NCBI GenBank assembly: GCA_040755995.1
Contig: JBFMAF010000035.1
Location: forward strand, 96,001-160,000
Length of the DNA stretch: 64,000 nucleotides
Direction of reading: 5' to 3'
Origin: Acidobacteriota bacterium
GTDB lineage: Bacteria > Acidobacteriota > CAIWXX01
Under the pieces are notes generated by a model that searched no databases, was not told the origin of the DNA, and was given only the letters and a program-made list of their open reading frames with translations. This document shows, piece after piece, positions 1 through 13,823 of this stretch (its first letter is position 1; every line of letters starts with the position of its first letter). The position numbers were made by a program, and so were the translations under genes.

Positions 1-3000
1 TCGACCGTCGGGAGTCAACGCAGCGCCGTAGACGCGCTGCCTGCCGTGATCCGTCAGCGTATGCCGGCAGCTGCCGTTGAGAAGATCCCAGACTCTCACC
101 GTTCCGTCGGCACCGGCTGAAACCGCCATCGATCCGTCGTGACTCACGGCAACTCCGAGCACCTCTGCCGTGTGGCCGGAGAGATCGCATACGAAGCGCC
201 GACTGGCTCGGTCCCACACACGAATCGTGTGACCGAAGCTCCCCGAGAGGACGCGGGCGCCATCAGGTGTGACGGCGACGGCACTCACCCGGTCGCCATG
301 CTGATAGAGCGGCAGGACACGGCCGCCTTCCAGTTCCAGGAGGTTGACGCTGCCGTCTGTGCAGCCCGCAACGGCCAACCCACCGTCGGCCGTCACCGCC
401 AATGAGTGTATGACACTGCCACTCCAATGGATCAGGTGGCGAGGCTCCCCCGTGGAAAGGTCCCATACTCTCACGTGCTTGTCGGTGCTGGCCGCGGTGA
501 CCGCGTACCGGCCGTCAGGTGTCGCAGCCATGACGGCCACAGACCCGGCGAATCCGCCCCGCGACATGAGACACGAACCGTTGAGCGTGTTCCACACCCG
601 CATCGTTCGATCCGATCCTCCGGACACCACGCGCGTGCCGTCCAGTGTCACGCCCAATGAGCACACCCAGTCGGAGTGACCGGTGAGCGTGCGCAGTAAC
701 GCGGGCTGCGGCTGGTGCTCGGGTCGTGAACTCTCAAGCCGCAAGATGGCGGGGTTGCTTGTCTCATCGCCCGCCAGAAGCGCCGCGGCCGCGTCAGCCA
801 CTGGTCCGCTGCGCGCTGAGCTGTAAGCCTGCTGCACGCCGAATCCGCGCATCGAGCTGAATCGCACGAGCGTGTGGCTCTCGGCGTTGACGAACTGCGC
901 GAAGCTCCGGATGCGCCCGAGTCGTGTCGGCGCCTTCTCCACCCGTTGGACCACCCCCGTGGTCGTCCTGTCGGCATCCGGCAGGAGTGCTTCGGGAGGT
1001 TGCGGCGCGCTATCCGGAGCGGCTGTGACGCTGTCCGTGCCGCACTCGATCGATTGACGGCATACCGACGCGAGGCTGATCAGCTTCTCGGTGTAGTCTC
1101 TGATGGAGACAGTGCGAGCCGCCTCCGCCTTGCACGATGCCTCAGCCTCGGGCAGCGCATCCAGAACGTGCCGGTAGTCATCGATCAGGTCGTAGGTGCC
1201 GCCGGCCGCGCAGCGCGCCTGAATGTAGCGCAAGTCGGTCAGCAGAGCTTCCAGTTCGTCCCATCGCCTTGCCTCGCGCAGATGGGCAGGGAGATGCGCC
1301 AATGCATACTCGGAGAGGCTGTGCGTGCCGGACCGATATTCTTGCCACCCGCGGTCGGCCAGCCGTCTGTGACCATCAATCAGGCCCGCGTAGTAAGGTC
1401 CGGCACGGTCAGGCGCGTTCAGCCACTCGAGGAGCGACCGGTGAAACGGCCGCACGCGACCGTCCTCCACACAGAACAGAGACCCCACAGCGCGCAGGAA
1501 TCTCATCTGCGCGCGCTCGTTCCAACCGACCAGAGCCGATAAGTACTCGATCGACAGCGGCTCTCGCGACGCCGAGATCGCGTCCAGGGCGGGCAGCAGA
1601 TCGCTTTCATACTCGCGAATGTCGGGAAACTGGCGCGTGAAGAATTGCGCGTAGATGCCGCCCAGGCCCTGGGGGAAATCGTCGAGGCGATCCAGAGACA
1701 GCCGCCCCATCGCGAGCTCGCGGCAGATCCACTCGACGTACAGAAAGATCCCTTCGCTGCCGCTGATGATTCGGCGGACCACCGCCGGATCCGGCTTCCT
1801 TCCCACCGCTCGCTCGATCTCCCGCTCCAGATACGCCCTGATATCCGCCTCGTTTTCGGGAACAGCGGCGTCGAGCACGTACGGCGTGAGGCCCTGGAGA
1901 TGAAATGCCACGGCCGGATCCGGGCGGCTCGTGACTATAAGGCGCAGCCAGGCGGGCGTCTTTTGAAACTCGGTGGCCAGAAAGGCCGCGAGCTCGTTTC
2001 GGCCTCCGGCCGTGGCCTCGTCCAGAGCGTCGATCAGGACGACCGCCATGTGATCCGGCTCGGGGAAACCCCGCGCCAGAGGCTGGACGATCAGTTCATC
2101 GAAGAGCGTCTGCGCGTTTGACTCAGGGATGAGCTGTTCCAGGTTGACGGCCTGAAGACGGTCGAAGTAGTCGGGGAGCTGTGAGCCGAGCTGGTAGGCG
2201 ATCGACAACACGGCTCTACGCGGGTCCGCCTTCTGCACGTGGCCGTATCGGCAGAGATGAAACGCCGCGACCTCCCTCCGATGACTGCAAAGCCGGGCCG
2301 CCAGAGCCGTCTTGCCCACGCCGGGCTTGCCCAGGATCCAGAAGACGCGCGATGCCGTTTGGTCGACGAGCCAGGCATCGATTCTGTCGAACACCCACTG
2401 CCTGCCGGTGAAGCGACGGACGTGCGGCAGCAGGTCGGCCTCGAACGGAAGCGGCTGCAGCAAGTTGGCCAGTCGGCCATGGGCACCTTCGAAGGCCGGG
2501 GCTTCGCGATCGAGGACCTCCGTGAGCACCGCGAACTTGCCCTCGTAACGCGTCGAGCCGTCGAGCAGAGGCACGCAGTCCTGCATATCGAGCCACTGGA
2601 TCCGGCAGATGGAGAGCGGCGGCTCGCACCAGACGACCATGACCGGCACGATGGCCAGCCGCCTCTGCAAGGCGCGCGCCATTTCGTTGAGGCAGTACCC
2701 ATCGGGCCTGCGCACGGAGTGTGGAGTCATCAGGAGGACTACCCTGCCTGCCCCTGGTATCTCAGAGGCCCAGTCGAGGCCTTCCTCGATATGCTTCTCC
2801 CAGTCTGCTCCGGGTTTGAGCTTCTCCAGGTCGAACCAGACTGAATGTCCCTGCGCGACAAGGTCTTCTTTCAATCGTTGAGCGACCGATGCGTGTTCGT
2901 CATGCCCGTAGCTCAGGAATATGCGCCGGGAGGGGCGCGGCTTCCCTGCCGAGAACTCATGGCAGCAGTCGACACAGACCTGGACCTGCCGCTTCGGGCT

Positions 3001-3060
3001 GAAGTGGAGATTCGGCGAGGCGCACGCGGGGCAGACTGTATCGCCGGGTAGAGCCGCCAT
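1..3060 (-). CDS. Zn-ribbon + TIR + NACHT/STAND NTPase + WD40 repeat protein (NLR-like; 3' end beyond window edge)
   Basis: Manual translation from ATG 3060: MAALPGDTVCPACASPNLHFSPKRQVQVCVDCCHEF (two CxxC); RIFLSYGH...VWFDLEKLKPGADWEKHIEEG...YCLNEMARA (TIR); FTGRQWVFDRIDAWL...WILGKPGVGKT (Walker A); VLIDALDEA (Walker B); LIVTSRP; then repeats such as GHSDWVCSLGVTLDGTRVVSGGSDRTMRVWN and GHTAEVLGVAVSHDGSMAVSAGADGTVRVWD. No stop seen before base 1. Confidence 0.92.
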   Translation of the reverse strand, partial: MAALPGDTVCPACASPNLHFSPKRQVQVCVDCCHEFSAGKPRPSRRIFLSYGHDEHASVAQRLKEDLVAQGHSVWFDLEKLKPGADWEKHIEEGLDWASEIPGAGRVVLLMTPHSVRRPDGYCLNEMARALQRRLAIVPVMVVWCEPPLSICRIQWLDMQDCVPLLDGSTRYEGKFAVLTEVLDREAPAFEGAHGRLANLLQPLPFEADLLPHVRRFTGRQWVFDRIDAWLVDQTASRVFWILGKPGVGKTALAARLCSHRREVAAFHLCRYGHVQKADPRRAVLSIAYQLGSQLPDYFDRLQAVNLEQLIPESNAQTLFDELIVQPLARGFPEPDHMAVVLIDALDEATAGGRNELAAFLATEFQKTPAWLRLIVTSRPDPAVAFHLQGLTPYVLDAAVPENEADIRAYLEREIERAVGRKPDPAVVRRIISGSEGIFLYVEWICRELAMGRLSLDRLDDFPQGLGGIYAQFFTRQFPDIREYESDLLPALDAISASREPLSIEYLSALVGWNERAQMRFLRAVGSLFCVEDGRVRPFHRSLLEWLNAPDRAGPYYAGLIDGHRRLADRGWQEYRSGTHSLSEYALAHLPAHLREARRWDELEALLTDLRYIQARCAAGGTYDLIDDYRHVLDALPEAEASCKAEAARTVSIRDYTEKLISLASVCRQSIECGTDSVTAAPDSAPQPPEALLPDADRTTTGVVQRVEKAPTRLGRIRSFAQFVNAESHTLVRFSSMRGFGVQQAYSSARSGPVADAAAALLAGDETSNPAILRLESSRPEHQPQPALLRTLTGHSDWVCSLGVTLDGTRVVSGGSDRTMRVWNTLNGSCLMSRGGFAGSVAVMAATPDGRYAVTAASTDKHVRVWDLSTGEPRHLIHWSGSVIHSLAVTADGGLAVAGCTDGSVNLLELEGGRVLPLYQHGDRVSAVAVTPDGARVLSGSFGHTIRVWDRASRRFVCDLSGHTAEVLGVAVSHDGSMAVSAGADGTVRVWDLLNGSCRHTLTDHGRQRVYGAALTPDGR

Positions 3061-3069
3061 GATGCGAGG

Positions 3070-3099
3070 ATTCTAGGGAAGGTCGCGTGGAGCTGTCAA
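3070..3099 (-). promoter_or_regulatory. sigma70-like promoter for the TIR-NACHT gene
   Basis: Minus strand TTGACA (3099-3094), 18 nt, TAGAAT (3075-3070), 9 nt before the ATG; no Shine-Dalgarno. Confidence 0.55.
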
Positions 3100-3311: not shown

Positions 3312-3518
3312 GTGGTCGTCCCGAAAACGGAGGTGGCTCGAATGGACAAACCACTGGGGGTCGCGTTCATTTGCGACCATGTCGCCGGCGATGTCGCACT
3401 GAGCTCGGAGCACAACACCTACGCCTGGATCGATCCATCGGAACACGCGGACTACCCTCTGAGCACCTCGATGAAGGAGCAGATAGAGGCCTATCTGGGG
3501 AGCCAGCGGCGCTCGTAG
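3312..3518 (+). pseudogene. C-terminal fragment of a NUDIX-family hydrolase
   Basis: LGVAFICDHVAGDVALSSEHNTYAWIDP resembles the NUDIX C-terminal LSxEHxxxxW segment; no Nudix box upstream in frame. Confidence 0.5.
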
Positions 3519-3534
3519 CGCAGCCGCGAATGCC

Positions 3535-3858
3535 ATGATAGAGATGGTGGACACGGCGCCGCGCAAGGTAGCGGTGCATCCGCAGTCCGACTGGGCGCAG
3601 CGGCCACTCGAGCTCACGCCCGAGGAAGTGGAGCTTCTGGCCAGGATGGAGCATACGCGCTGGTGCGACGAGCGTCGTGCAGCCGGCTGGCGCTACGCAC
3701 CGCCGCCGAAGAACGTCGAGAAGAAGCCCAGCCCGTATCTGGTGGCGTGGGAAAAGGCTGGCGAGAAGACAAAGGACATCGATCGGGATGCTGTGCGCTC
3801 CATCCCCGCAACACTGGCGCAAGCGGGGTTTCAGGTGTATCGACGTAGAAGTAGATAG
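3535..3858 (+). CDS. RyR-domain protein (stand-alone or remnant of a larger gene)
   Basis: ELLARMEHTRWCDERRAAGWRY...KKPSPYLVAWE...KDIDRD matches the RyR repeat pattern LAxxEHxRWxxER...GW.Y...HP.LVPW..L...KxxDR. Confidence 0.85.
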   Translation: MIEMVDTAPRKVAVHPQSDWAQRPLELTPEEVELLARMEHTRWCDERRAAGWRYAPPPKNVEKKPSPYLVAWEKAGEKTKDIDRDAVRSIPATLAQAGFQVYRRRSR

Positions 3859-4006: not shown

Positions 4007-4231
4007 ATGGAAGCGCGGAACACCGACTCCAAGTCAGCCGGCCAGGAATGGGCGCAGAAACCGATCGCCACGTACCGATCGCGGCTGGGGGATTGCGAGG
4101 GGTTTGCCGGGGTGCTGAAGGCGGTGCTGGAGCCGGTCGCTGAAAAGCTGGCTCCACAGGCCTACCCATCGGCTGCGGCTCCGGATCGTAGCGCCCCTCG
4201 CCCTTGCCGCTCTGCGGCGGCTTTGGTATAA
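4007..4231 (+). pseudogene. short ORF, possible N-terminal remnant of a RelA/SpoT-domain-RyR type protein
   Basis: Strong RBS (AGGAGG) before the ATG; EWAQKPIATYRSRLGDCEGFAGVLKAVLEPVAEKLAPQA resembles, from memory, the helix preceding small alarmone synthetase domains; the sequence then degenerates. Confidence 0.3.
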
Positions 4232-4271: not shown

Positions 4272-4955
4272 ATGGCAACTGAAATAGCCTGGCACGGTCA
4301 CTCTACGTTCGAGGTTCATTCGGGCGGGAGGGTCATCCTCGTAGATCCGTTCTTCAACGGTAATCCGCTTGCGAAGGCGACGCCGGATTCCGTCAAGGCT
4401 GACTTCATTCTGGTGACGCACGGCCACGGGGATCACATCGGCGACACAGTCGAGATCGCCGGACGCACGGGAGCGACGGTAATCTCCAATTTCGAGATCT
4501 GCAACTGGGTCGGCTCGAAGGGCGATCTCAAGGTTCATCCGCAGCATATCGGCGGCGGATTCCAGCACCCGTTCGGCTACACGAAGCTGACGATCGCGCA
4601 TCACGGGTCCGCATTGCCCGACGGTTCGTACGGCGGCAACCCGTGCGGCTTTCTTATCAGCCTGGAAGGCAAGAAGGTCTACTTCGCGGGCGACACCGGG
4701 CTTTTTCTCGAAATGCAGCTCTACGGTGAAGAAGGCATCGACCTGGCGTTTCTGCCCGTCGGAGACAACTTCACGATGGGACCCGACGACGCGCTCCGCG
4801 CCGTGAAGCTCCTGCGGCCCAGGACCGTCGTCCCGATCCACTACGGCACCTGGCCGGTGATCGAGCAGAGCGCCGAGGCCTGGAAGCAGCGAGTGGAAAA
4901 GGAGACATCGACGCGCTGCGTCATCCTCACCCCCGGTGGTCGCATCTCCCCGTAG
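4272..4955 (+). CDS. metal-dependent hydrolase, metallo-beta-lactamase fold (UPF0173-like)
   Basis: WHGHSTF, THGHGDH, YFAGDT, PIHYGTW motifs; RBS AGGAGG. Confidence 0.92.
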   Translation: MATEIAWHGHSTFEVHSGGRVILVDPFFNGNPLAKATPDSVKADFILVTHGHGDHIGDTVEIAGRTGATVISNFEICNWVGSKGDLKVHPQHIGGGFQHPFGYTKLTIAHHGSALPDGSYGGNPCGFLISLEGKKVYFAGDTGLFLEMQLYGEEGIDLAFLPVGDNFTMGPDDALRAVKLLRPRTVVPIHYGTWPVIEQSAEAWKQRVEKETSTRCVILTPGGRISP

Positions 4956-5017
4956 AAACGACGCTTCGGCGCAGATTGATTCTCTGAGGAACTAGAACCT
5001 ACGGGAGAAGTGCTGCT

Positions 5018-5644
5018 ATGGCGTTCAACCTGTTTCCAAGAGTGGTGAGATTCTACGACATGCTCCAGGCGCAGAGCCGGTTCCTGACGGAGGCGGCCCG
5101 GGCCCTGGAGTGCATCTGCGAGGATCCTGCTGGACGCAACGCTCTGTGTAAGCGTATCGGCCAGCTGGCTCAAGAGGGCGACGCGTTGGAGCGCGAGATC
5201 TCCACCAAGCTGGCTCAAACGTTCATCACACCGCTGGACCGTGAGGATATTCACGATCTGAACCTCGCACAAGAGGATCTGCTCAATCTCATCCATGCCG
5301 TCTCCACGCGCCTGGGCATCTATCCATTCTCGACGATGCGGCCAGGGGTTCGAACACTGGCCGGTGAGCTTCGCAGGATGGTTGATGAGATAGCTGCCAT
5401 GGTCGGCAATCTCGGCAAGAAGAAGCTGGATACCCACTCCACGGCAGCTCGGGAGATCAAGTCCGATGCGTCGGCTCTCATTTTGGTTGCCTTGGGTGAA
5501 CTGTACGAACAGCCCGTCGGGTCCGCGGGCGAGGTCATGGAGATCATGCTGTGGGCTCAGATCTATGACCGTATGGAGCAGGCCGTCAGGCAGGCCCAGG
5601 CCCTCGCCAGCCTCCTCGAGAGGATAGGTGTCAAGAATGCCTGA
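5018..5644 (+). CDS. DUF47 / PhoU-like phosphate transport regulator
   Basis: TFITPLDREDIHDL signature; directly upstream of and overlapping a Pit transporter. Confidence 0.9.
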   Translation: MAFNLFPRVVRFYDMLQAQSRFLTEAARALECICEDPAGRNALCKRIGQLAQEGDALEREISTKLAQTFITPLDREDIHDLNLAQEDLLNLIHAVSTRLGIYPFSTMRPGVRTLAGELRRMVDEIAAMVGNLGKKKLDTHSTAAREIKSDASALILVALGELYEQPVGSAGEVMEIMLWAQIYDRMEQAVRQAQALASLLERIGVKNA

Positions 5645-6641
5645 GATTTCCTGGCTGCTCGTCGTCATTATCTTCGCCGCCTTGGCCTTTGACTACACCA
5701 ACGGCGCGCATGATGCAGCGAACGCCATCGCCACGGTGGTCTCCACCAAGGTCTTGTCGCCCAGAGCTGCTGTGGTCATGTCAGCGACACTCAATTTCGG
5801 CGGAGCGATGTTGGGCACCCGCGTGGCGGAGACGATCGGCAAAGGGATCGTTGACCCGAAGATGATCCTGGACTCCCATTGCCTGTTGCTCGCGTCCGTT
5901 CTTGCGGCCATTGCCTGGAACTCATTCACGTGGTGGCTCGGCCTGCCTTCATCCTCCTCGCACGCGCTCATCGGGGGGCTGATAGGCGCCGCGGTGGTGG
6001 AATGCGGATGGAGCGTCCTGCAGTACCGATCCATCCTGGAGAAGGTCGTGGTGCCGCTTTTCGTCTCGCCGCTCGCCGGTCTCATCGCAGGCTACTTCCT
6101 GATGGTGTTGATCGCGTGGTTGACCCATGGCCTCCGGTATCGGACCGCCAGTGCCGCATTCAAGAGGCTCCAGATCCTGACGGCCGGGTTCATGTCCGTG
6201 AGCCATGGTTCCAACGACGCCCAGAAAACCATGGGCCTGATCACGCTGAGCCTGCTGAGTTATGGGCTCATTCCGAGCCTGACGGTCCCGCTGTGGGTGA
6301 AGCTGGCATGCGCCGGCGCCATCAGTCTAGGGACGATGACGGGCGGCTGGAAGATCATTCGGACGATGGGGCACAAGATATTCAGGATGCGCCCTGTGCA
6401 CGGATTCGCTGCCGAGATTGCCGCCTCGACGGTCATCTTCTCAGCTTCGCTCTTCGGGGCACCCATCAGCACGACCCACGTGATCTCCTCGTCTGTGCTC
6501 GGCGTCGGCTCAGCCCAAAGATGGACGGCTGTGAAATGGAGGGTCGCAGGCGAAATGGTCAGCGCGTGGGTCTTCACCATCCCGTGCGCGGCCGTGGCCG
6601 GGGCGCTGTGGATGATGCTCCTGGGCGCTATCGGCCTTTGA
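5637..6641 (+). CDS. pit: inorganic phosphate transporter (PiT family)
   Basis: NGAHDAANAIAT, GLPSSSSHALIGG, HGSNDAQKTMG, PISTTH motifs. Confidence 0.93.
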   Translation: MPEISWLLVVIIFAALAFDYTNGAHDAANAIATVVSTKVLSPRAAVVMSATLNFGGAMLGTRVAETIGKGIVDPKMILDSHCLLLASVLAAIAWNSFTWWLGLPSSSSHALIGGLIGAAVVECGWSVLQYRSILEKVVVPLFVSPLAGLIAGYFLMVLIAWLTHGLRYRTASAAFKRLQILTAGFMSVSHGSNDAQKTMGLITLSLLSYGLIPSLTVPLWVKLACAGAISLGTMTGGWKIIRTMGHKIFRMRPVHGFAAEIAASTVIFSASLFGAPISTTHVISSSVLGVGSAQRWTAVKWRVAGEMVSAWVFTIPCAAVAGALWMMLLGAIGL

Positions 6642-7959
6642 GCGTCCGCTCTGCAGGCCGAACTTCATAGATCCGGAACGAGTTCTTCCCAGGATCCACG
6701 GCGGTGAACGATAGGTGGCTCGCACGGTCCCGCACGAAACCGAACCTGTCGGGGAAGGCCATCACGTAGAGGGCGCCGCCGGGTCGGAGGCGGGCGTCCA
6801 GCGACGAGAGCACTGAGAGCATGATACGCCCTTCATGATCGACACCCCTGTGGTCGCTCCAACTCAGCGCTGTCTCGTACGTTACGGGCGCGTTGAACAG
6901 GATGGTGTCGTATGCATCCGGCACATTCTGGAACGCATCGCTTCGCCAGACGCGGATTCGCCGCGCAAGATCGTGGTACGCCACGCTCGCTCTCGCGTTG
7001 GCGACCTCGAGATCCCCGATGTCTACCGCATCAACGGCCACGTCGCGATTCAGCGCCACCAGGACCGCCTCAGGGCCGGCTCCGCATCCAAGGACGAGCA
7101 CTCGCTGGCCCGCCTGGATCTTCGGGAGCGCGCAGGCCAGCAGCACGCGCACGAAGTCTGTGTTGGGCGTGAAGACATCCAGGAACAGCGGAATACTGAC
7201 GTTGCCGCAGGGGCCTCCTCTGGCCACCGACCACCACAACCGAAAATCGCCGGTGGGGCCGTCGATGCCTATTGGTGCGCTGCTCTCGGCGAGGTCAGCC
7301 CCCAGAGCCGTATTGACGAACTTCCCGAAGTACTCCGTCTTGAACTCGCTCCAGCGTTCACGTGCGCTCGCATCCGGCGCCGCCCCGAACGACGTCAGCT
7401 CCGAGAACTCGAGAAAGGCGAAGTCGCCGGAGGGACCTTCGGGGACCGCATGTGGAGCCCGGATCAGCAGACCAAGCGGCACACGATCATGAATGAGCAG
7501 CCATCCGGCGAGCGGCCCGGCCCGCTGCCCGTGCTCCTTCCAGCCTGGCAGACATCCCGCGGCGCGACGCAGAACGGACGAGTCGCCGACTGCGATCAGA
7601 TGAAACGGGCCGAGCCGCGCACCGGGCTCCGAGTCCAGTGCTACCCCGAGTGCGTCCAGGAAGAACCGGATCGAATCGGACGCGCACGGATAGGGCACTG
7701 TGGCTACCTCGTCCCAAGCGGCCTCAGCAGCATGTTGTGGTAGAGGGCGCCGTAGACACCGAACGCTCGCGGCATGTAGCGCAGCCTGGCCAGTTCGAAG
7801 CCCCTTCGCGCCTTGATCAGGAACTCGCTCTAGGGAAGAGGATCGTCGGAACCGTTCGCGGCGAGGCTGTCCTTTGGCGGCAGTTCGAACCGCGTCACGG
7901 TTCCATCGGTCGAAGGCATGGAGCTCAAGACGATCACGAATGCAGCCGCGCGCCGACAA
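6628..7959 (-). CDS. class I SAM-dependent methyltransferase (true start uncertain)
   Basis: C-terminal VLVLGCGAG, VDAVDI and ILFNAP motifs; N-terminal part not recognised. Confidence 0.7.
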   Translation of the reverse strand: MSARGCIRDRLELHAFDRWNRDAVRTAAKGQPRRERFRRSSSLERVPDQGAKGLRTGQAALHAASVRCLRRPLPQHAAEAAWDEVATVPYPCASDSIRFFLDALGVALDSEPGARLGPFHLIAVGDSSVLRRAAGCLPGWKEHGQRAGPLAGWLLIHDRVPLGLLIRAPHAVPEGPSGDFAFLEFSELTSFGAAPDASARERWSEFKTEYFGKFVNTALGADLAESSAPIGIDGPTGDFRLWWSVARGGPCGNVSIPLFLDVFTPNTDFVRVLLACALPKIQAGQRVLVLGCGAGPEAVLVALNRDVAVDAVDIGDLEVANARASVAYHDLARRIRVWRSDAFQNVPDAYDTILFNAPVTYETALSWSDHRGVDHEGRIMLSVLSSLDARLRPGGALYVMAFPDRFGFVRDRASHLSFTAVDPGKNSFRIYEVRPAERTLKGR

Positions 7960-9382
7960 GCTGCGAAATGAGGTAGGTCACGTCAACTGCGTACAGCGCA
8001 ATGAGGATCATGAACCAGAGGTAGAAACAGAACATCACTCTCGGCGATCCCGCGATCCTGAGAACCGCCCACTGGCAGCCCTCGGCGAAACACCACAAGA
8101 AGGCCGGCATGGCTGGGAAGACGTAGATCGCCTTCATTGCGGAGTAGTCGCGGTTGCCATACGTGAATTTCAGCATGCCGATTGCGAACAGCATCAGGAA
8201 TAGCGGCATCACCCAGGAGAAGTCCTGCGAGAGGTGCGCGAGGCCGCGATCGAGAACTCCCTTGCCCGCGCGGACGGCACCATCGGCAAATCCGACGAGC
8301 ATTAGGAAGAGGTGCAGCAAAGCCAGACCGAGGATGGCACTTCCCAGTCCCATGACGAAACGGCTCCTGTCGGCCCAACTCAGAGGAAACTGGTCGAAAT
8401 GGACGAAATGGGTGCGGCCGTAAAGCTGGGACCAGAGTGATGACCTGTGTCTGGGCTCAATTGGGACACCGAGCGTATTGTAGGGATGCCGTATCAGGTC
8501 GATGATCCGAAAGGTGCACCAGGAATCGAGGAGTGTCGTTACGCCGAGTGAGCTCCTCCAGGTCGGGTCCGGAACGAATTCGAAGAACTTCGGAGCGATG
8601 CTCGTGGGCACCTGGGAGTGGATTGGATTGCCGTGCGTCTTCCAGCCATAGTAGTACTGCCCGAAATAGGGCACTATGGCGGCCCAGAGAAGGATGAGTG
8701 TCAGCAGAGTCCTCAGATAGATCCTACGCGCAAGGAGGTCCGATCGGCCGGCGAAGAGAACCACCACGAGCACGAGGACGCTTCCGCCGAAAATGACGAG
8801 CCCCGACGCCTTCGAGAGGCAGGCCAGAATCACCGCCGCTACGAGCAGGGCGCCGTAGAGGCCCGCCTTGGTGTGCAGAAGTCGCCATAGCGAGTAGATT
8901 GCGAGCGTCCCAAACAGGATCACGAAAGAGTCGTTGGTCACCTGGGTGTTGATGCCGACCGACTTGGGGTTCAGCGCCGCGCCCGCGAAGACGATCAGTC
9001 GAACATCGTCCCGAATAGGAAGCATCTGGACGAGCCTGAGCAGAATGTAGACCGTCAGAACGCCGGCGAGTGCACTCAATATCTGAAAGGCGACGATTGC
9101 CGCATTGATCGACTGGAGATCGAATAATCTACCCATCGCCGCGCAGGTGGCGTGGTAGAGCTTGGGGTGGTACCCCTCCCATTCGTCCTCCGCGTGTACG
9201 AACGTCCCCTCGAACTGTATATACCCGATCACGTTCAGATGAATGTCGTTGGCCTCTCTATTCACGACCGCGAGAAGAATGCGCAGGAGAATGGAGACCA
9301 AGAAGACAGCCATCAACGCCCTGGGGAACAGGAGACTCCGCTCGCTACTGTTCCCACCACCATTCAACGAGGATATCCACAT
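7934..9382 (-). CDS. multi-pass membrane protein, GT-C / PMT-ArnT-like glycosyltransferase
   Basis: Many hydrophobic helices; ANDIH, EGYHPKLYH, VTNDSF and LSKASGL resemble GT-C family motifs. Confidence 0.65.
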   Translation of the reverse strand: MWISSLNGGGNSSERSLLFPRALMAVFLVSILLRILLAVVNREANDIHLNVIGYIQFEGTFVHAEDEWEGYHPKLYHATCAAMGRLFDLQSINAAIVAFQILSALAGVLTVYILLRLVQMLPIRDDVRLIVFAGAALNPKSVGINTQVTNDSFVILFGTLAIYSLWRLLHTKAGLYGALLVAAVILACLSKASGLVIFGGSVLVLVVVLFAGRSDLLARRIYLRTLLTLILLWAAIVPYFGQYYYGWKTHGNPIHSQVPTSIAPKFFEFVPDPTWRSSLGVTTLLDSWCTFRIIDLIRHPYNTLGVPIEPRHRSSLWSQLYGRTHFVHFDQFPLSWADRSRFVMGLGSAILGLALLHLFLMLVGFADGAVRAGKGVLDRGLAHLSQDFSWVMPLFLMLFAIGMLKFTYGNRDYSAMKAIYVFPAMPAFLWCFAEGCQWAVLRIAGSPRVMFCFYLWFMILIALYAVDVTYLISQLVGARLHS

Positions 9383-10000
9383 CTGCAGCAGAAGTCTCGC
9401 CCTCCAGGCGTGGCGCCTTGTGCGCGAACCTCCTGAGTCTATCCCACACTCCGCGCCCTAGCAACCTTCGCAGTGGGGGCTCAGCTGTTTCGCAATTGTT
9501 TGGTTCCCCGGTTGCAGGGAGAGGCACTTGGAGCGACTTTGCGCTGCGTGGAGGCGGAGGAGCGAAGGCGGGGGCTATCTTGCGGGTGATCACTGACTTG
9601 TTTTTCTGGCTTCGAGAAGGCCTGGGCCGGGCGGCGGGATGATCGAATCAATCAGGTGCCGAACTGGACGCGGGGCAGGCTATGTGGTATGGAATGCACG
9701 GACATGCCCAGCTGCACGAACGAGATAAGCCAGGCTCTGGCTTTTCTGAAGTCTGGATCCAGGAGCATGATAGGATCGATCCCAGATGGTAGCGCACGGG
9801 AAGTGCTTGTGCCTTGGTGCTTGATTACTATTCGACGGTGCGGTAAGTCAGGCGTGAGAGACCCGAGCTCAGACCTTGCCCTGCCCGGTGCCGGCCCTGC
9901 GAGGTCTCCTTCATCACGTGCCCACGCAACAGGGGGCCGAAGGATCTGGGCGCCGCATGCCTCCTCTTCGGGCATGGAGTAGGGGTGGAGGAGGCACGCC

Positions 10001-11485
10001 ATGGGCGAGCGCACGCACGGCCAGGAGCCGAAGGGCGAGCTCCGCTTCGCTGTTTTCGTCGTGGCTTACAACGCGGTATCTACCCTGCGGAGGGTCCTGG
10101 ATCGGATTCCGGCGGAGGCGTGGGAACAGCTCGAAGAGGTCTTCGTTTTTGACGACTGCAGCCAGGACGACACGGCCCTGCTGGGAGAGGGATACAAAGC
10201 CTCGCGCGGCATCGAGAAACTGAAGATCTACCGGAACAAGTGCAACTTGGGTTACGGGGGCAACCAGAAGCGGGGCTATGCCTATGCCCATGAGAAGGGG
10301 TTTGACTACGTCATCCTACTGCATGGGGACGGCCAGTATGCGCCGGAGATGATCCCTGAGTTCATGCGCGTGGCCCGAGAAGAGCGTCCCGCGGCCGTGT
10401 TTGGCTCCCGCATGCTCGCGAAGGGGAGCGCCCGCCGGGGCGGCATGCCGCTCTACAAGTACACCGGGAACAAGATCCTTAGCACATTTGAAAACCTCCT
10501 CCTGGGCGTGAAGCTTTCTGAGTTTCACTCTGGCTACCGCATGTATTCGGTACGGGATCTACGACAGCTCCATCTCCAGGCGTACACCGATGACTTCCAT
10601 TTTGACACGCAGATCATCGTGGAGCTCGTGCACCTGGCGAAGGCTATCGTCGAGATCCCGATCCCTACCTACTACGGGCGGGAGATCTGCTACGTGAACG
10701 GGATGAAATACGCGTGGAACGTGGTCTTGTCGGTCTTACAGTACAAGCTCAGCGGCTTGGGGCTGGTCAGCTGCCACTGGTGCGGCGCGGAGGGGGAGCG
10801 AATGGGTCGGTACCGTGCAAAGGGCAGTCCATTGAGCAGCCACCGGAGAGTGGCGAACCTTGTGCCGCCCAACGCCAGTGTCTTGGATCTGGGCGCGGAG
10901 GGATTCTACGTGACCGAGTTGAAGGCCAGAGGGTGCCTGGTCGTCGGCCTGAACAGCAAGGAGCCGGGGGGCGAGGTCAGGGCCCAGTATGACCGGTTCG
11001 TCTTGCGGGATGCCGATGCCGAGGGGCTGCCGGCACCCAAGGACATCGGCTATTTCGACTGCGTGATCATGGCCGATGTGATCGAGCACCTGAGGACTGC
11101 CCCTGCGGTGCTCTCCCACGCCAAGGATCTGCTTGGGGGAAAGGGTGTCCTCGTCGTCTCAACTGGAAACGTGGCCCACTGGTTTGTCCGCTTGAACCTT
11201 CTGTTGGGGCGCTTCAATTACGCTGAGCGCGGGATACTGGACCAGAGCCACGTGCACCTCTACACGAAGAATACCTTCAAGAGGCTCCTGCTCGGGCAGG
11301 GCTACCAGATCCTCAAGTTCAAGGTCACCCCAATTCCGTTCGAGCTCCTGGCAGGTCGCGGGGCACTTTCCCGGCGGTTCTGGAAGGCCGTTGAGTATGG
11401 CTACTACGTCCTTGCCAGGGTGTGGCCAGGCTTGTTCGCCTACCAGTTCGTCTTGGTGGCCACCCCTTGCAGGAGAGGGCCGTGA
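10001..11485 (+). CDS. GT2 (DPM1-like) glycosyltransferase fused to a class I methyltransferase
   Basis: VAYNA, FDDCSQD, NLGYGGNQK, LHGDGQY, EFHSGYR, then VLDLGA, ADVIEHL, GILDQSHVHLYT. Confidence 0.9.
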   Translation: MGERTHGQEPKGELRFAVFVVAYNAVSTLRRVLDRIPAEAWEQLEEVFVFDDCSQDDTALLGEGYKASRGIEKLKIYRNKCNLGYGGNQKRGYAYAHEKGFDYVILLHGDGQYAPEMIPEFMRVAREERPAAVFGSRMLAKGSARRGGMPLYKYTGNKILSTFENLLLGVKLSEFHSGYRMYSVRDLRQLHLQAYTDDFHFDTQIIVELVHLAKAIVEIPIPTYYGREICYVNGMKYAWNVVLSVLQYKLSGLGLVSCHWCGAEGERMGRYRAKGSPLSSHRRVANLVPPNASVLDLGAEGFYVTELKARGCLVVGLNSKEPGGEVRAQYDRFVLRDADAEGLPAPKDIGYFDCVIMADVIEHLRTAPAVLSHAKDLLGGKGVLVVSTGNVAHWFVRLNLLLGRFNYAERGILDQSHVHLYTKNTFKRLLLGQGYQILKFKVTPIPFELLAGRGALSRRFWKAVEYGYYVLARVWPGLFAYQFVLVATPCRRGP

Positions 11486-11581
11486 AGCGGCTCGGCCCGC
11501 CCGCAGCTGGCCTCCGGTGTCCCCGGGACTGCTTCGAGAGGGGGCAGTGATCGGCTGGTCCGCCCGGGCGCTCAAGGGCAT

Positions 11582-11734
11582 GCCGATCTGGCTTTCGGAG
11601 CATTCGCGACCGGGTTCGGGTACGAGTACATCACGACCGAGACCAAACGCGGCGGCGTAACGGACACCACGAACGGCTGGGCCGTCTCGACTCAGCCTAC
11701 AGTCGGCGTCCAGATCCGCTACTACTTGAATTAG
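11582..11734 (+). pseudogene. C-terminal remnant of an outer-membrane beta-barrel gene
   Basis: Frame with no obvious start reads ADLAFGAFATGFGYEYITTETKRGGVTDTTNGWAVSTQPTVGVQIRYYLN-stop: amphipathic strands ending in a beta-signal-like motif. Confidence 0.35.
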
Positions 11735-11762
11735 CGAGACGCGGTCGGCCGGGTCTCTGCGT

Positions 11763-11792
11763 GCCCGTACCCGTTCGACGTCGGGTACGGGT
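11763..11792. terminator. hairpin between convergent genes
   Basis: GCCCGTACCCG / CGGGTACGGGT inverted repeat just downstream of the ligase stop. Confidence 0.45.
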
Positions 11793-11821
11793 GCGCGCAC
11801 CGTACCGAGGATTCGGCCCAG

Positions 11822-13744
11822 TCATCCGACGCGCTGGCGCAAGTAGAGCTCCTCGATGCTCGTCGTACTGTCGGTCTCGTGGGCGTGCTTGTCGGCGCGG
11901 ATGACGACAAGCTTGGGATCGCGAAGCGAGAGGCGCCCTGTCGCATGGTCGCGCGTCACGCCTTCAAACCGCACCGTGACGACGATGTGCGGAAGCAGCT
12001 CCATGCCGGGCCGCACGCCGGAAGCGCTCGGCCGCTCGATCCGCCGCCCCGTCAGCAGCCCTTCCCTCAGGATCTCCGCCTGTATCTCCGCGTCGCGCAC
12101 CCGATCGACTCCAGCCACGTCCCCAACGTCCTCGAACGAGCCGTCCGGCCGGCGAGCGCCGATCAGGTACGACCCGAACACCCCGGCGTGCTCCTTGGTG
12201 GTCACGGCAAGCACCGCGCCGAGGAGGACCAGGTCGAGCGTCACCTCCGGCTTCCGCTTCCTCCATGCCGGATCGCGCTCGGAAAGCAGGTAGCGCCCGT
12301 TCAGGTCCTTGGCGATGATCCCCTCGTAGCCCTGCGCGCGGAAGTGGTGGAAGAGCCTGTTGACATCATCGCGGCTGCTCGCGAGCTGCCCCTCGGCGAC
12401 GAGGAGAGGCACGGGGAGTGAGAAAGCGGCGAGCGGCGCGAGCAGAGCCTGGAGCCGCGCACGGCGCTCGGCGAGCGCCATCGACGTGAGATCGTGGCCG
12501 TTCAAGTACAGCAGATCGAAGGCCGCGAACTTGAGATGCACGGGCTGCGCCCGTTCGCCCTGCAGCGCCGCGTACACTTCGTAGACTGTGGCGGGGCGCG
12601 CGCCATCGAGGCTCAGCACTGTGCCGTACAGCTCGCCGTCTACTATCGCATCGCGCGCCGGAATCATCTTGATCGTAGCGTCGAGCCCGGGTACGAGCTC
12701 GAGCCAGTCTCCCCGGTTGCGCGTGTAGGCGCCGCAGAGCACCGTGGACAGTGCATCGGTCGACTTGTGCAGCATCAGCCGTATGCCGTCGTACTTGCGC
12801 TCGACCCACACTGGGAACTTGTCGATCTCGTCGGCCGTCCCGCCCGCGAGCGCCGGCCGGACCGGCGCGAGCGGTTTGAGGCGGATGCTGTGAAGCCCTT
12901 GCGGGCCGTGTGCCTGGAGAGCCTCGGCGACGTGGAAGACGTCGGTGAGCGCTATGGCGTGCGCCACGGCCTCCTCCGAGGCGCCGAAGCTGGTCGCGAG
13001 GACTCGAGCGATCAGCGATCCCTGGTATTCGATGCCGGCCTTGCACAACAGAAGCCTGGCGAGGAAGTACGCTTCGAGTTTCCCGCAACGCAACAGCATT
13101 GAGCGAAGGACGTCGAAGGCGAGAGTCCTTCGTGTGCCTGGAAGGAACCGCAGCGTCTCGAGGACCTCGGCGGAAGTCAGTGCCGGCTCCTCTCGCAATG
13201 AAGGCCGCGTTTCGGCCATGAGCACCGCCACGTCTCCAACCATGGTGAGCCGATCCAGCATCTCACGGTAACGCGCAAGCCGCACCGAGGAGGTCAGGCG
13301 GACCAGGCTGTCTCGCCGGAAGGTGCTCTTCTTGCCTCGGAAGGGTTGGCCCAGGATGCAGCCGAGCTTCTGGAGCAGACCGAGCCCGGTCTCGCGGTCG
13401 AGAAACCGCCGTATAAGGTTCTCGCGCGCTTGCGAATCCAGTGGCGGCGGAACGATTATCCCAAACAGCTGGGCTACCTTCTCAGGAGCCATACCCGAGA
13501 GTGGCAGGAACAGGCCGGTGCAGAGACTGTAGAACGGAATCGAGTCCAGTGCGCCCTCCGCCACCGGAGCGCCTCGCTCGGCCGCGAGCCTCTCGATGAC
13601 GAACGCGAGGTGAAGCGGGACGCCCAGGTTGCCTTCGAGATACTCGGTTGTGGCCGGTTGAGGTCCGAGCGTATGCAGAACAGGCGCGAGCGACCCTGCG
13701 CTCTCGACCCAGGCCCGGACGTCGTCGGACTGAACAACTTTCAT
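11822..13744 (-). CDS. ATP-dependent DNA ligase with long N-terminal helical domain
   Basis: Motif I ERKYDGIR, III IVDGEL, IIIa AFDLLYLNG, IV EGIIAK, V WRKRKP...LDLVLLG, VI SLRDPKLVVIRADK; RBS GGAGAGGGAG. Confidence 0.93.
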   Translation of the reverse strand: MKVVQSDDVRAWVESAGSLAPVLHTLGPQPATTEYLEGNLGVPLHLAFVIERLAAERGAPVAEGALDSIPFYSLCTGLFLPLSGMAPEKVAQLFGIIVPPPLDSQARENLIRRFLDRETGLGLLQKLGCILGQPFRGKKSTFRRDSLVRLTSSVRLARYREMLDRLTMVGDVAVLMAETRPSLREEPALTSAEVLETLRFLPGTRRTLAFDVLRSMLLRCGKLEAYFLARLLLCKAGIEYQGSLIARVLATSFGASEEAVAHAIALTDVFHVAEALQAHGPQGLHSIRLKPLAPVRPALAGGTADEIDKFPVWVERKYDGIRLMLHKSTDALSTVLCGAYTRNRGDWLELVPGLDATIKMIPARDAIVDGELYGTVLSLDGARPATVYEVYAALQGERAQPVHLKFAAFDLLYLNGHDLTSMALAERRARLQALLAPLAAFSLPVPLLVAEGQLASSRDDVNRLFHHFRAQGYEGIIAKDLNGRYLLSERDPAWRKRKPEVTLDLVLLGAVLAVTTKEHAGVFGSYLIGARRPDGSFEDVGDVAGVDRVRDAEIQAEILREGLLTGRRIERPSASGVRPGMELLPHIVVTVRFEGVTRDHATGRLSLRDPKLVVIRADKHAHETDSTTSIEELYLRQRVG

Positions 13745-13823
13745 CGCCAACTCCCTCTCCTACTCGCCCCACTACACGCCGTCTGCCTCAGGGGGAGCAC
13801 CGAAGCTGGCATGATCGGCTCTC

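Follow-up and report, generated by a model that had tools for sequence, protein, structure and literature searches.

The sensor gene and its domains

The window, the whole 64,000-nucleotide stretch analysed here, opens with the first 1020 codons (positions 1–3060, minus strand) of a gene for a ZnR-TIR-NACHT-helical-WD40-ZnR protein of 1479 aa, hereafter the sensor. As the preliminary description had reported, an uninterrupted minus-strand frame of more than 1000 codons is present: it runs without stops from an ATG at 3060 to the left edge, 1020 codons in all, a length that composition alone would yield with a chance of ~4e-13 per start. Extending the contig leftward, which that description had proposed, kept the frame open for 1380 bases past the edge, to a stop at G000:C35:94621 (G000, host genome; C35, contig). 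The label ‘hidden gene’ was dropped: the sensor is missing from the list of closed reading frames because it runs off the window, being 3'-open there, and the 1479-aa protein is already catalogued in the protein collection and the Atlas. A sigma-70-type promoter (3070–3099, minus strand; 11/12 consensus matches, 18-nt spacer) ends 9 nt before the ATG, no obvious Shine-Dalgarno sequence precedes this ATG, and the transcript is probably near-leaderless. A second copy of the gene on contig C28 and a 67%-identical orthologue (L156) keep this -35/-10/9-nt layout, which supports Met1 as the start and translation of the Zn ribbon.

At the level of sequence and structural modelling, we show that the sensor comprises, in order, a Zn ribbon, a TIR, a NACHT, an APAF1-type helical domain, ~14 WD40 blades and a C-terminal CxxC/CxxC domain, with intact motifs and a record of purifying selection. 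The motifs of the preliminary description all lie where it had placed them: CPAC (aa10-13), CVDC (aa29-32), YCLNE (aa122-126), Walker A GKPGVGKT (aa244-251) and Walker B VVLIDALDE (aa340-348). Its suggested Pfam run matched the TIR_2, NACHT and WD40 profiles, with E values of 4e-19 for TIR_2, 2e-24 for NPHP3_N, 2e-8 for APAF1_C and 5e-34 for WD40. NPHP3_N was the best NTPase profile; NACHT (PF05729) reached 33.8 bits (cut-off 26.7) and NB-ARC stayed below its own cut-off (17.4 versus 23.5 bits). Pfam gave no DUF4062 match on aa1-220, where TIR_2 matched, and a PDB sequence search with aa1-660 returned no match.

The TIR_2 domain (2581–2922, minus strand; aa47-160) retains the catalytic glutamate that had been called intact, Glu126 (codon 2683–2685), which is predicted to sit in the alphaC helix; the residue is Glu in 103 of the 104 homologues that could be parsed (15/119 were unparsed). 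Tyr122 occupies the WxxxE aromatic position, which is Tyr or Phe in 102/104 parsed homologues. All cyclising TIRs share an aromatic at the equivalent position (10.1101/2022.05.07.491051), a criterion for ADPR cyclases that is necessary, not sufficient. The structures nearest to the modelled TIR are the SPARTA TIR-APAZ (Z 15.6), a Hydra TIR (15.5) and SARM1 (14.5), which are effectively tied. The NACHT NTPase core, delimited by the NPHP3_N profile (1924–2400, minus strand; aa221-379), contains Walker A at 2308–2331 and Walker B at 2017–2043, the latter fitting the NACHT-type consensus. The APAF1_C helical domain (1135–1371, minus strand; aa564-642) overlaps a weak TANC1-like winged-helix match (aa488-605). 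At least five WD40 repeats had been noted; the window holds the first five to six blades (1–699, minus strand) of the ~14 counted in the predicted structure, which amount to two propellers' worth, with the remainder beyond the window.

The N-terminal four-cysteine zinc ribbon (2965–3033, minus strand; aa10-32) is modelled as a small beta-hairpin unit (pLDDT ~80-87). Its Pfam matches are all sub-threshold (best E 0.007), and an Atlas search with it found TIR clusters only, under 0.9. With a dN/dS of 0.11-0.13, a figure that indicates purifying selection over the whole divergence time rather than at present, the ribbon is real, as the preliminary description held, but it is not the unfamiliar feature it had seemed, since 54 of the 119 top homologues carry it in full and 56/119 lack it. 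We rejected it as the defining novelty: a widespread, dispensable accessory of the family is not what sets the locus apart. A second CxxC/CxxC motif, CAWC...CPHC, marks a C-terminal zinc domain outside the window (aa1400-1451, minus strand) that gave no usable Atlas match and no Pfam match over cut-off. Both zinc ribbons probably serve accessory roles in structure or docking.

Two complementary island copies

The island that holds the sensor is present in the genome in two diverged copies, which are collinear, ~78% identical and reciprocally deleted. In the C35 copy the sensor is intact and its NUDIX, channel-RyR and RelA-RyR neighbours are cut to remnants, at least five genes having been deleted, truncated or frameshifted; in the C28 copy the sensor is the remnant and these three genes are intact. 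On the plus strand of the window, the sensor is followed by a 58-aa NUDIX remnant (3342–3518), which has lost 234 nt internally and in frame when compared with the intact gene at C28:172427, and by a 107-aa single RyR-domain ORF (3535–3858), the in-frame remnant of a 610-aa 2TM-TrkA_N-RyR-RyR gene (C28:172853). This ORF keeps the HxxW motif and the downstream Asp, and on its sequence it may work as a stand-alone RyR protein. The island ends on the right with a 5' stub (4007–4162, plus strand) of a RelA/SpoT-TPR-(SLOG-like)-RyR-RyR gene of which C28 has the intact copy, its SLOG match being sub-threshold (E 0.003).

The 7.7-Mb genome has five PF02026 (RyR) matches, and each falls within ~5 kb of a ZnR-TIR copy. 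Bacterial RyR repeats keep HxxW and, mostly, an Asp ~42 residues downstream; the phosphate-binding His of the phage protein RyDEP is replaced in most repeats of the host genome, with positions equated by spacing only.

A patchy family with exchangeable tails

We found at least 817 relatives, and about half of the closest carry the Zn ribbon. Tails are exchanged among WD40, TPR, NUDIX and RyR types, with direct fusions to RyR in 4 and to NUDIX in 6 of the 119 homologues. The ZnR-TIR-NACHT-WD40 architecture is thus a known theme, and the gene alone is one more TIR-NACHT-WD40 protein from a large family. The family is spread patchily over many phyla and methanogens (3/301 genomes in the host's phylum), and its sensing part diverges faster than the head (47% versus 65-71% identity). 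No relative was found in viral contigs, nor in plasmids at E 1e-20. DUF4062-NACHT genes adjoin 17/134 relatives and occur in the sensor's own island. The nearest orthologue (genome G018, 67% identical) has no island genes within ~20 kb; a type I RM-like cluster adjoining an integrase lies ~12 kb away, names assigned by eye from the sequence.

The preliminary description had proposed an anti-phage NLR with a WD40 sensor. The NLR-like architecture, catalytic Glu and Walker motifs bear this out in part, but PADLOC, which it had recommended, gave no Avs or bNACHT match: PADLOC 2.0 returned only 10 matches on the sensor, to the WD40 stretch (HEAT-ARM_XIII) and to weak TIR models. Across 12 homologous loci, the 106 neighbours matched generic domains only and no canonical defence system, and a classical defence island was found at none of these 12 loci.

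Linkage to RyR-domain genes

Of 134 independent family loci, covering 1.28 Mb of flank, 23 have an RyR gene alongside or fused, far above background, and so do 20 of the 75 loci whose flanks reach 8 kb or more; an RyR neighbour is lacking at 111/134 loci and at 55/75 of those with long flanks. PF02026 exceeds its cut-off in 27 of 50 genomes carrying the family, and was found in only 19/299 genomes of the host's phylum (G000 and G025 left out), a background not taxon-matched to the family's hosts. Another 21/50 family-bearing genomes, many of them incomplete MAGs, lack any RyR match. The three family-bearing genomes among 301 in the phylum all have RyR genes, and represent two lineages only. 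Sampling in the reverse direction, 12 of 25 RyR clusters contained a TIR (10) or DUF4062 (2) gene in a stretch of up to 20 kb, against ~0.4 expected for TIR_2, as estimated by arithmetic.

The linkage is loose. On a quick NACHT tree of 76 rows it requires 20 changes, against 19.3 in shuffles, and we rejected a fixed RyR operon because the link is scattered rather than clade-bound. Nor was the cyclase aromatic supported as a predictor of RyR partners, which neighbour 11/82 TIRs with the aromatic and 10/30 of the Val/Ile types; a cyclic signal is therefore not indicated. Near family genes, most RyR repeats form part of larger proteins with channel-, synthetase- or ATPase-type domains, and small RyR-only ORFs of 82-131 aa that look like sponges or erasers adjoin several relatives. 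RyR modules also flank DUF4062-NACHT genes; the DUF4062 domain of TEP1, as tested in the available part of one report, yielded linear ADPR only (10.64898/2026.05.01.722283). Phage RyR domains were shown in 2026, in the portions of the reports available, to bind or hydrolyse TIR-made 2'/3'cADPR (PMC13232231; 10.64898/2026.06.04.730250). Linkage to RyR, NUDIX and RelA genes points to TIR signalling besides, or instead of, plain NAD+ depletion. Our literature search, largely at the level of listings and abstracts, found no description of a host TIR-NACHT with RyR-domain effectors, although survey supplements could list ZnR-TIR-NACHT or RyR architectures; the RyR gene context is the new part of the finding.

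Comparison with known systems

The sensor, with its N-terminal effector, central NACHT and C-terminal repeats, has the layout of bacterial NACHT NLR-related proteins (10.1101/2022.07.19.500537). As far as the available text of that work goes, its domains include TIR effectors, beta-propeller sensors, ZnR and ‘hybrid’ sensors bearing an additional small domain at the C terminus; the same passages mention no RyR partner. The STAND switch resembles that of Avs3 (8dgc; Z 14.5, rmsd 3.3, 238 aligned), yet the sensor matches no Avs profile and its best NTPase profile is of NPHP3 type. Apaf-1-like WD40 sensors have been recognised in bacterial STANDs, according to the accessible part of a recent study (10.64898/2026.01.04.697583).

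A Foldseek search with the TIR-NTPase head ranked the plant TIR-NLR RPP1 (7crc) first (E 3e-8, low TM-score), and Apaf-1 (3shf) came fourth for the propeller half; with Apaf-1 the sensor shares an APAF1 helical domain and, after it, two WD40 propellers. Unlike these proteins, the sensor has NACHT in place of NB-ARC, no LRR and no CARD, and its head is a TIR; the resemblance lies in the design and does not amount to orthology. TEP1, NWD1, NPHP3 and bacterial DUF4062 NADases share the NADase-NACHT-APAF1 helical-WD40 order, in the available part of the account (10.64898/2026.05.01.722283), but the sensor carries a canonical TIR_2 with a zinc ribbon in DUF4062's place.

Thoeris types I-XI, in the part of the survey available, likewise set a TIR enzyme beside candidate nucleotide-binding genes with channel or enzyme outputs (10.64898/2025.12.03.692087); the survey removed TIRs in Avs proteins, and ‘RyR’ is absent from its main text. 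In contrast to the non-STAND Thoeris TIRs, the sensor's TIR is fused to NACHT-WD40 within a 1479-aa NLR, and its RyR linkage forms no fixed operon. Phage RyDEP and RyR Tad have the same PF02026 domain and His/Trp/Asp pattern, but in the available accounts (PMC13232231; 10.64898/2026.06.04.730250) they are viral anti-defence proteins, whereas the host RyR domains are encoded on the chromosome and usually occur in tandem and joined to putative effectors.

Interpretation

Our preferred reading, at a probability of roughly 0.45, is that the sensor acts as a ligand-gated NADase and that RyR-domain effectors read the ADPR-type product in trans. If the sensor works like Apaf-1, Avs and plant TNLs, its paired WD40 propellers would hold the NACHT off until a ligand, probably a phage protein, binds. 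As in other STAND proteins, the NACHT would then oligomerise and bring TIR domains together, and the clustered TIRs would cleave NAD+ through Glu126. The gene context suggests that the product, ADP-ribose or a 2'/3'-cyclic isomer, would serve as a second messenger. Three proteins would sense it through tandem RyR (Repeat12) pockets, namely a 2TM-TrkA channel-like protein, a RelA/SpoT-type synthetase and a P-loop ATPase, and a NUDIX hydrolase would remove it. With the intact sensor on C35 and intact receivers on C28, this relay would act in trans; the candidate RyR-bearing effectors are broken in cis on C35, intact on C28 and adjoin the same 23/134 relatives. Counting for the relay are the position of 5/5 PF02026 matches near ZnR-TIR copies, the reciprocal deletions of the two island copies, the two-way RyR-TIR linkage and its recurrence across the NACHT tree, the fusions, the ligands of phage RyR domains, the HxxW and Asp kept by bacterial repeats and Tyr122; counting against it are the 111/134 loci and the nearest orthologue without RyR neighbours, the 21/50 family-bearing genomes without an RyR match, the RyR neighbours of Val/Ile-type TIRs and of DUF4062-NACHT genes, the replaced RyDEP-type His, and the broken state of the adjacent partners in the window.

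A close rival, which we hold to be somewhat improbable, is that the sensor is a self-contained executioner, on the model of TIR-bearing Avs/bNACHT, SPARTA or DUF4062 systems: sensing would oligomerise the TIR, which would drain NAD+ and arrest the infected cell, while RyR and NUDIX would be optional ADPR buffers or clean-up, or reflect NAD-themed clustering. Most loci, and the nearest orthologue, lack RyR neighbours, and the sensor was retained while its adjacent partners decayed. The modelled TIR is nearest to SPARTA TIR-APAZ and SARM1 (tied with the Hydra TIR), N-terminal TIRs on NACHT are classed as NAD+-targeting effectors in the available text of one study (10.1101/2022.07.19.500537), and the 82-131-aa RyR-only ORFs resemble sponges or erasers. 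Left unexplained are the fusion of most RyR repeats to channel-, synthetase- and ATPase-type domains, the strength of the two-way linkage and the intact receiver set kept on C28.

It is clearly less probable that the protein has no anti-phage role but works in NAD/ADPR signalling, as a receptor through which large-genome environmental bacteria perceive a stress, developmental or cell-contact cue. The PADLOC results for the sensor and its 106 neighbours at 12 loci, and the failure to find relatives in viral contigs or plasmids, favour this, as does the NPHP3_N profile, since a 589-clade survey, in its available part, calls NPHP3 and TEP1 non-immune STANDs; patchy spread, swapped tails, fast sensor divergence and rapid gain and decay nevertheless all fit conflict genes. 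That the island is a decaying relic, its frame still open but the sensor next to go, seems very improbable. Five or more damaged genes on C35 and a dN/dS that averages the whole divergence time are compatible with it, but 4.4 kb are stop-free, every motif is intact, the promoter is near-consensus and the losses in the two copies are complementary, not identical.

The RyR link matters more than the gene alone. Bacterial STAND TIRs are usually seen as NAD+-draining executioners and were excluded from the systematic Thoeris survey. More tentatively than the relay itself, we suggest an NLR-to-second-messenger pathway in bacteria, in which a WD40/TPR NACHT receptor would switch on its TIR; the resulting ADPR-type signal, bound in RyR Repeat12 pockets, would gate a K+-channel-like protein, an alarmone synthetase and an ATPase, and NUDIX would end it. 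This pathway would work in trans across two complementary half-islands, would be the source of phage RyDEP and RyR Tad, and would be a counterpart of plant TNL signalling and of the animal cADPR-RyR link, long debated. As the genome has one intact copy of each part, a defined gene set is testable. If signalling is true, the messenger logic of plant NLR TIRs would extend to bacteria, cellular RyR/Repeat12 domains would gain a ligand and an output, and the cADPR-RyR question would become testable with small bacterial proteins.

The sensor gene and its product

The uninterrupted minus-strand frame that the preliminary description placed at the left edge of the window is real: it starts at an ATG at window position 3060, runs for 1,020 codons as far as the edge and stays open when the contig is extended leftward, giving a full protein of 1,479 aa in the genome (7.7 Mb, 99.84% complete, 3% contaminated), in which the window corresponds to G000:C35:96001-160000. 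Pfam matched the proposed TIR_2 (aa 47-160, motif YCLNE126), NACHT (aa 221-379) and WD40 repeats (from ~aa 788) in this sensor, with a weak winged helix and APAF1_C (aa 564-642) after the NACHT domain; the Zn ribbon (aa 10-32) gave sub-threshold Pfam matches only. The head was modelled confidently (pLDDT 87.5, pTM 0.82), and the model of aa 780-1479 (pLDDT 92.7) has 55 listed strands and one short one, ~14 propeller blades by hand count; after these comes a small alpha/beta domain containing CAWC and CPHC. The ATG is preceded by a near-consensus sigma-70 promoter whose end lies 9 nt upstream (two sites found versus 0.4 in shuffles); because this layout is also present in the copy on contig C28 and in the 67%-identical orthologue L156, the start codon is supported.

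The conserved C-terminal CxxC...CxxC-PLxxNPF domain (aa 1400-1451, G000:C35:94700-94870, outside the window) caps WD40 propellers and has no name from Pfam or Atlas. It also ends some DUF4062-NACHT proteins, DUF4062-NACHT-WD40 proteins among them, and occurs on a broken copy at C37:109322-110125 of the host genome.

A duplicated island with RyR-domain genes

The sensor lies in an island present in two collinear copies, C35:79666-100162 and C28:162550-174860, at ~71-86% identity, mostly near 78%. Shared parts show purifying selection (dN/dS 0.10-0.44) during divergence of the copies; gene losses therefore followed long function. The C35 copy retains intact sensor, two DUF4062-NACHT-TPR and ankyrin genes. 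Divergent from the sensor are three remnants: NUDIX, from which 234 nt have been deleted in frame; a 107-aa ORF in which only a ryanodine-receptor (RyR, PF02026) domain is left of a 610-aa gene; and a stub of RelA. The C28 sensor has lost ~3.7 kb and gained a stop; intact there are NUDIX, 2TM-TrkA_N-RyR-RyR, RelA/SpoT-TPR-RyR-RyR (with a sub-threshold SLOG match), P-loop ATPase-RyR-RyR, inositol-monophosphatase-family and second TIR-NACHT-WD40 genes. All five RyR matches of the host genome fall within ~5 kb of the two copies. Judging by its sequence, the C28 TrkA protein may be channel-like, with two hydrophobic helices either side of a pore-helix-like segment that lacks the GYG filter.

Three internal deletions kept the frame: those in NUDIX (at a 9-nt near-direct repeat) and TrkA-RyR, both in window 3342-3858, and one in the C28 sensor copy (G000:C28:171633-172136). 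Natural RyR proteins that stand alone (82-131 aa) adjoin other relatives; the 107-aa product looks like these and might be a sponge or eraser. Both copies carry a sigma-54 activator (G000:C35:79666-81645, frameshifted and then followed by a TIR fragment; C28:162647-164332), relatives of which adjoin three other family loci, and the C28 copy includes a DUF4032 fused to an HPr-like domain (G000:C28:165784-166449). Upstream of the island, four genes (G000:C35:72819-79624), among them those for P-loop proteins named from motifs by eye (MoxR-like, 338 aa; ClpB-like, 778 aa), are possibly a ternary conflict system; to its right, window 4272-13750 holds ordinary genes for a metallo-beta-lactamase-fold hydrolase, DUF47 with a phosphate transporter, a methyltransferase, glycosyltransferases and an ATP-dependent DNA ligase.

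A large family with an optional zinc ribbon

Sensor residues 1-480 matched at least 817 relatives among 8,000 candidates scored, a lower bound on family size; detailed counts were taken on the 119 best. These retain the Walker A Lys (116/119), Walker B (115/119) and the catalytic Glu (103 of 104 parsed; 15 unparsed). Their tails are WD40 in ~45 and mostly TPR in the rest, with NUDIX in six and RyR in four (Pfam); ten have the C-terminal zinc domain, eight of which were seeds of the search profile. The Zn ribbon is full in 54, reduced to the second CxxC in nine (probably late start calls) and absent from 56. The hosts belong to many bacterial phyla and to methanogens, with only 3 of 301 genomes in the sensor's own phylum. 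Compared with its closest orthologue, the sensor has a dN/dS of 0.13-0.49 in each of its parts; identity is 65-71% across the head and 47% across the WD40 repeats. The sensor is thus an ordinary member, and the ribbon, which had seemed unfamiliar from characterised systems, an optional accessory.

A recurrent but loose link to RyR genes

We collected at least 157 family loci from two scans (best 80 of each), merged at 90% identity into 134 groups, and searched their flanks with a local RyR profile that in the host genome matched known RyR genes only. RyR adjoined or was fused in 23 of the 134 groups, 20 of the 75 whose flanks reached 8 kb or more, and in 8/79 groups at ≥44% identity versus 15/55 below; most groups had no RyR alongside. 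Against a background of phylum genomes, not taxon-matched to family hosts, in which PF02026 is rare (21/301; 19/299 leaving out the host genome and G025), 27 of 50 genomes carrying the family had a match above the cut-off (50 of 79 genome loci examined). In the reverse direction, 12 of 25 RyR clusters from phylum genomes, spanning eight genera, had a nearby TIR (10) or DUF4062 (2) gene; ~0.4 TIR_2 would be expected (hand arithmetic from density in those genomes, tally including G025), and Pfam confirmed TIR_2 in all four TIR neighbours checked. Mapped on a quick 76-row NACHT tree, the RyR label needs 20 changes, similar to shuffles; the link is therefore recurrent and loose, not synteny of one clade. 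Several results count against the link: besides the majority of groups that lack RyR and the unmatched background, the nearest orthologue has no RyR within ~20 kb, though two RyR genes lie elsewhere in its genome, and around 12 family loci no classical defence system turned up.

Other repeated neighbours among the 134 groups were DUF4062 (17), a SLOG-like membrane protein family (9) and NUDIX (7). Members of the SLOG-like family (L048:1074-2816, L013:7426-9219, L191:10332-11975 and others; ~550-600 aa, weak Pfam N-terminal match, hydrophobic C-terminal half) also adjoin most RyR-ATPase genes. At two loci (L197:9908-12160, L198:7892-10264) an RyR-TPR-S-nucleotide-cyclase protein (Pfam on L197) is divergent from a TIR gene. 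A same-family genome holds a complete cluster of two DUF4062-NACHT, TIR, NUDIX, TrkA-RyR, RelA-RyR and ATPase-RyR genes (L174-L175, G001:C324:9078-35908), which may be better suited to testing a TIR-RyR system.

Possible mechanism and messenger

STAND proteins oligomerise upon ligand binding, and TIR domains cleave NAD+ via the catalytic Glu. By this established behaviour, ligand binding would oligomerise the sensor and its TIR would cleave NAD+ via Glu126. Judging by gene context, an NAD+-derived product would signal to RyR-domain effectors, a reading to which we assign a probability of roughly 0.45. Self-contained NAD+ depletion is a close rival, somewhat less probable; in modelled fold comparison the sensor TIR is nearest to SPARTA, Hydra and SARM1 TIRs, and depletion and RyR signalling are not mutually exclusive. 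Signalling outside defence is unlikely, and that the sensor is a relic is very improbable.

For signalling to RyR effectors, the messenger may be plain ADP-ribose. Passages of two 2026 preprints (PMC13232231; 10.64898/2026.06.04.730250) describe phage PF02026 domains that bind or hydrolyse 2'/3'cADPR. Judged by spacing, which is like that in the phage protein RyDEP, cellular RyR repeats retain HxxW and mostly the Asp, and often miss the phosphate-binding His; they match animal RyR repeats at E 1e-10 (a chimera) and 9e-9 (RyR2 and RyR3). Tyr122 of the sensor TIR permits cyclisation by the criterion in part of 10.1101/2022.05.07.491051. RyR partners do not follow this aromatic among parsed relatives (11/82 with, 10/30 without) and also accompany DUF4062 genes, whose member TEP1 yields linear ADPR only, according to a portion of 10.64898/2026.05.01.722283; hence the suggestion of plain ADP-ribose, a messenger that the NUDIX neighbour would suit.

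Relation to known systems

The anti-phage NLR reading in the preliminary description is partly supported: its NLR part stands, since the sensor matches the sequence definition of bacterial NACHT NLR-related proteins in passages of 10.1101/2022.07.19.500537. The sensor lies outside every Avs or bNACHT system modelled in PADLOC. WD40 sensors are already known among defence STANDs (excerpts of 10.64898/2026.01.04.697583), and the zinc-ribbon passages seen in PMC7159879 deal with GTPases and kinases. The sensor is not a ThsB of Thoeris, yet may act like one; a Thoeris survey left out Avs TIRs, and 'RyR' is absent from its main text (10.64898/2025.12.03.692087). Our literature search found no host TIR-NACHT/RyR system, which supplementary tables, outside its scope, could alter. 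The sensor gene thus belongs to a known kind of protein, and the new part is its gene context, which loosely connects a TIR receptor of NLR type with RyR-domain proteins.
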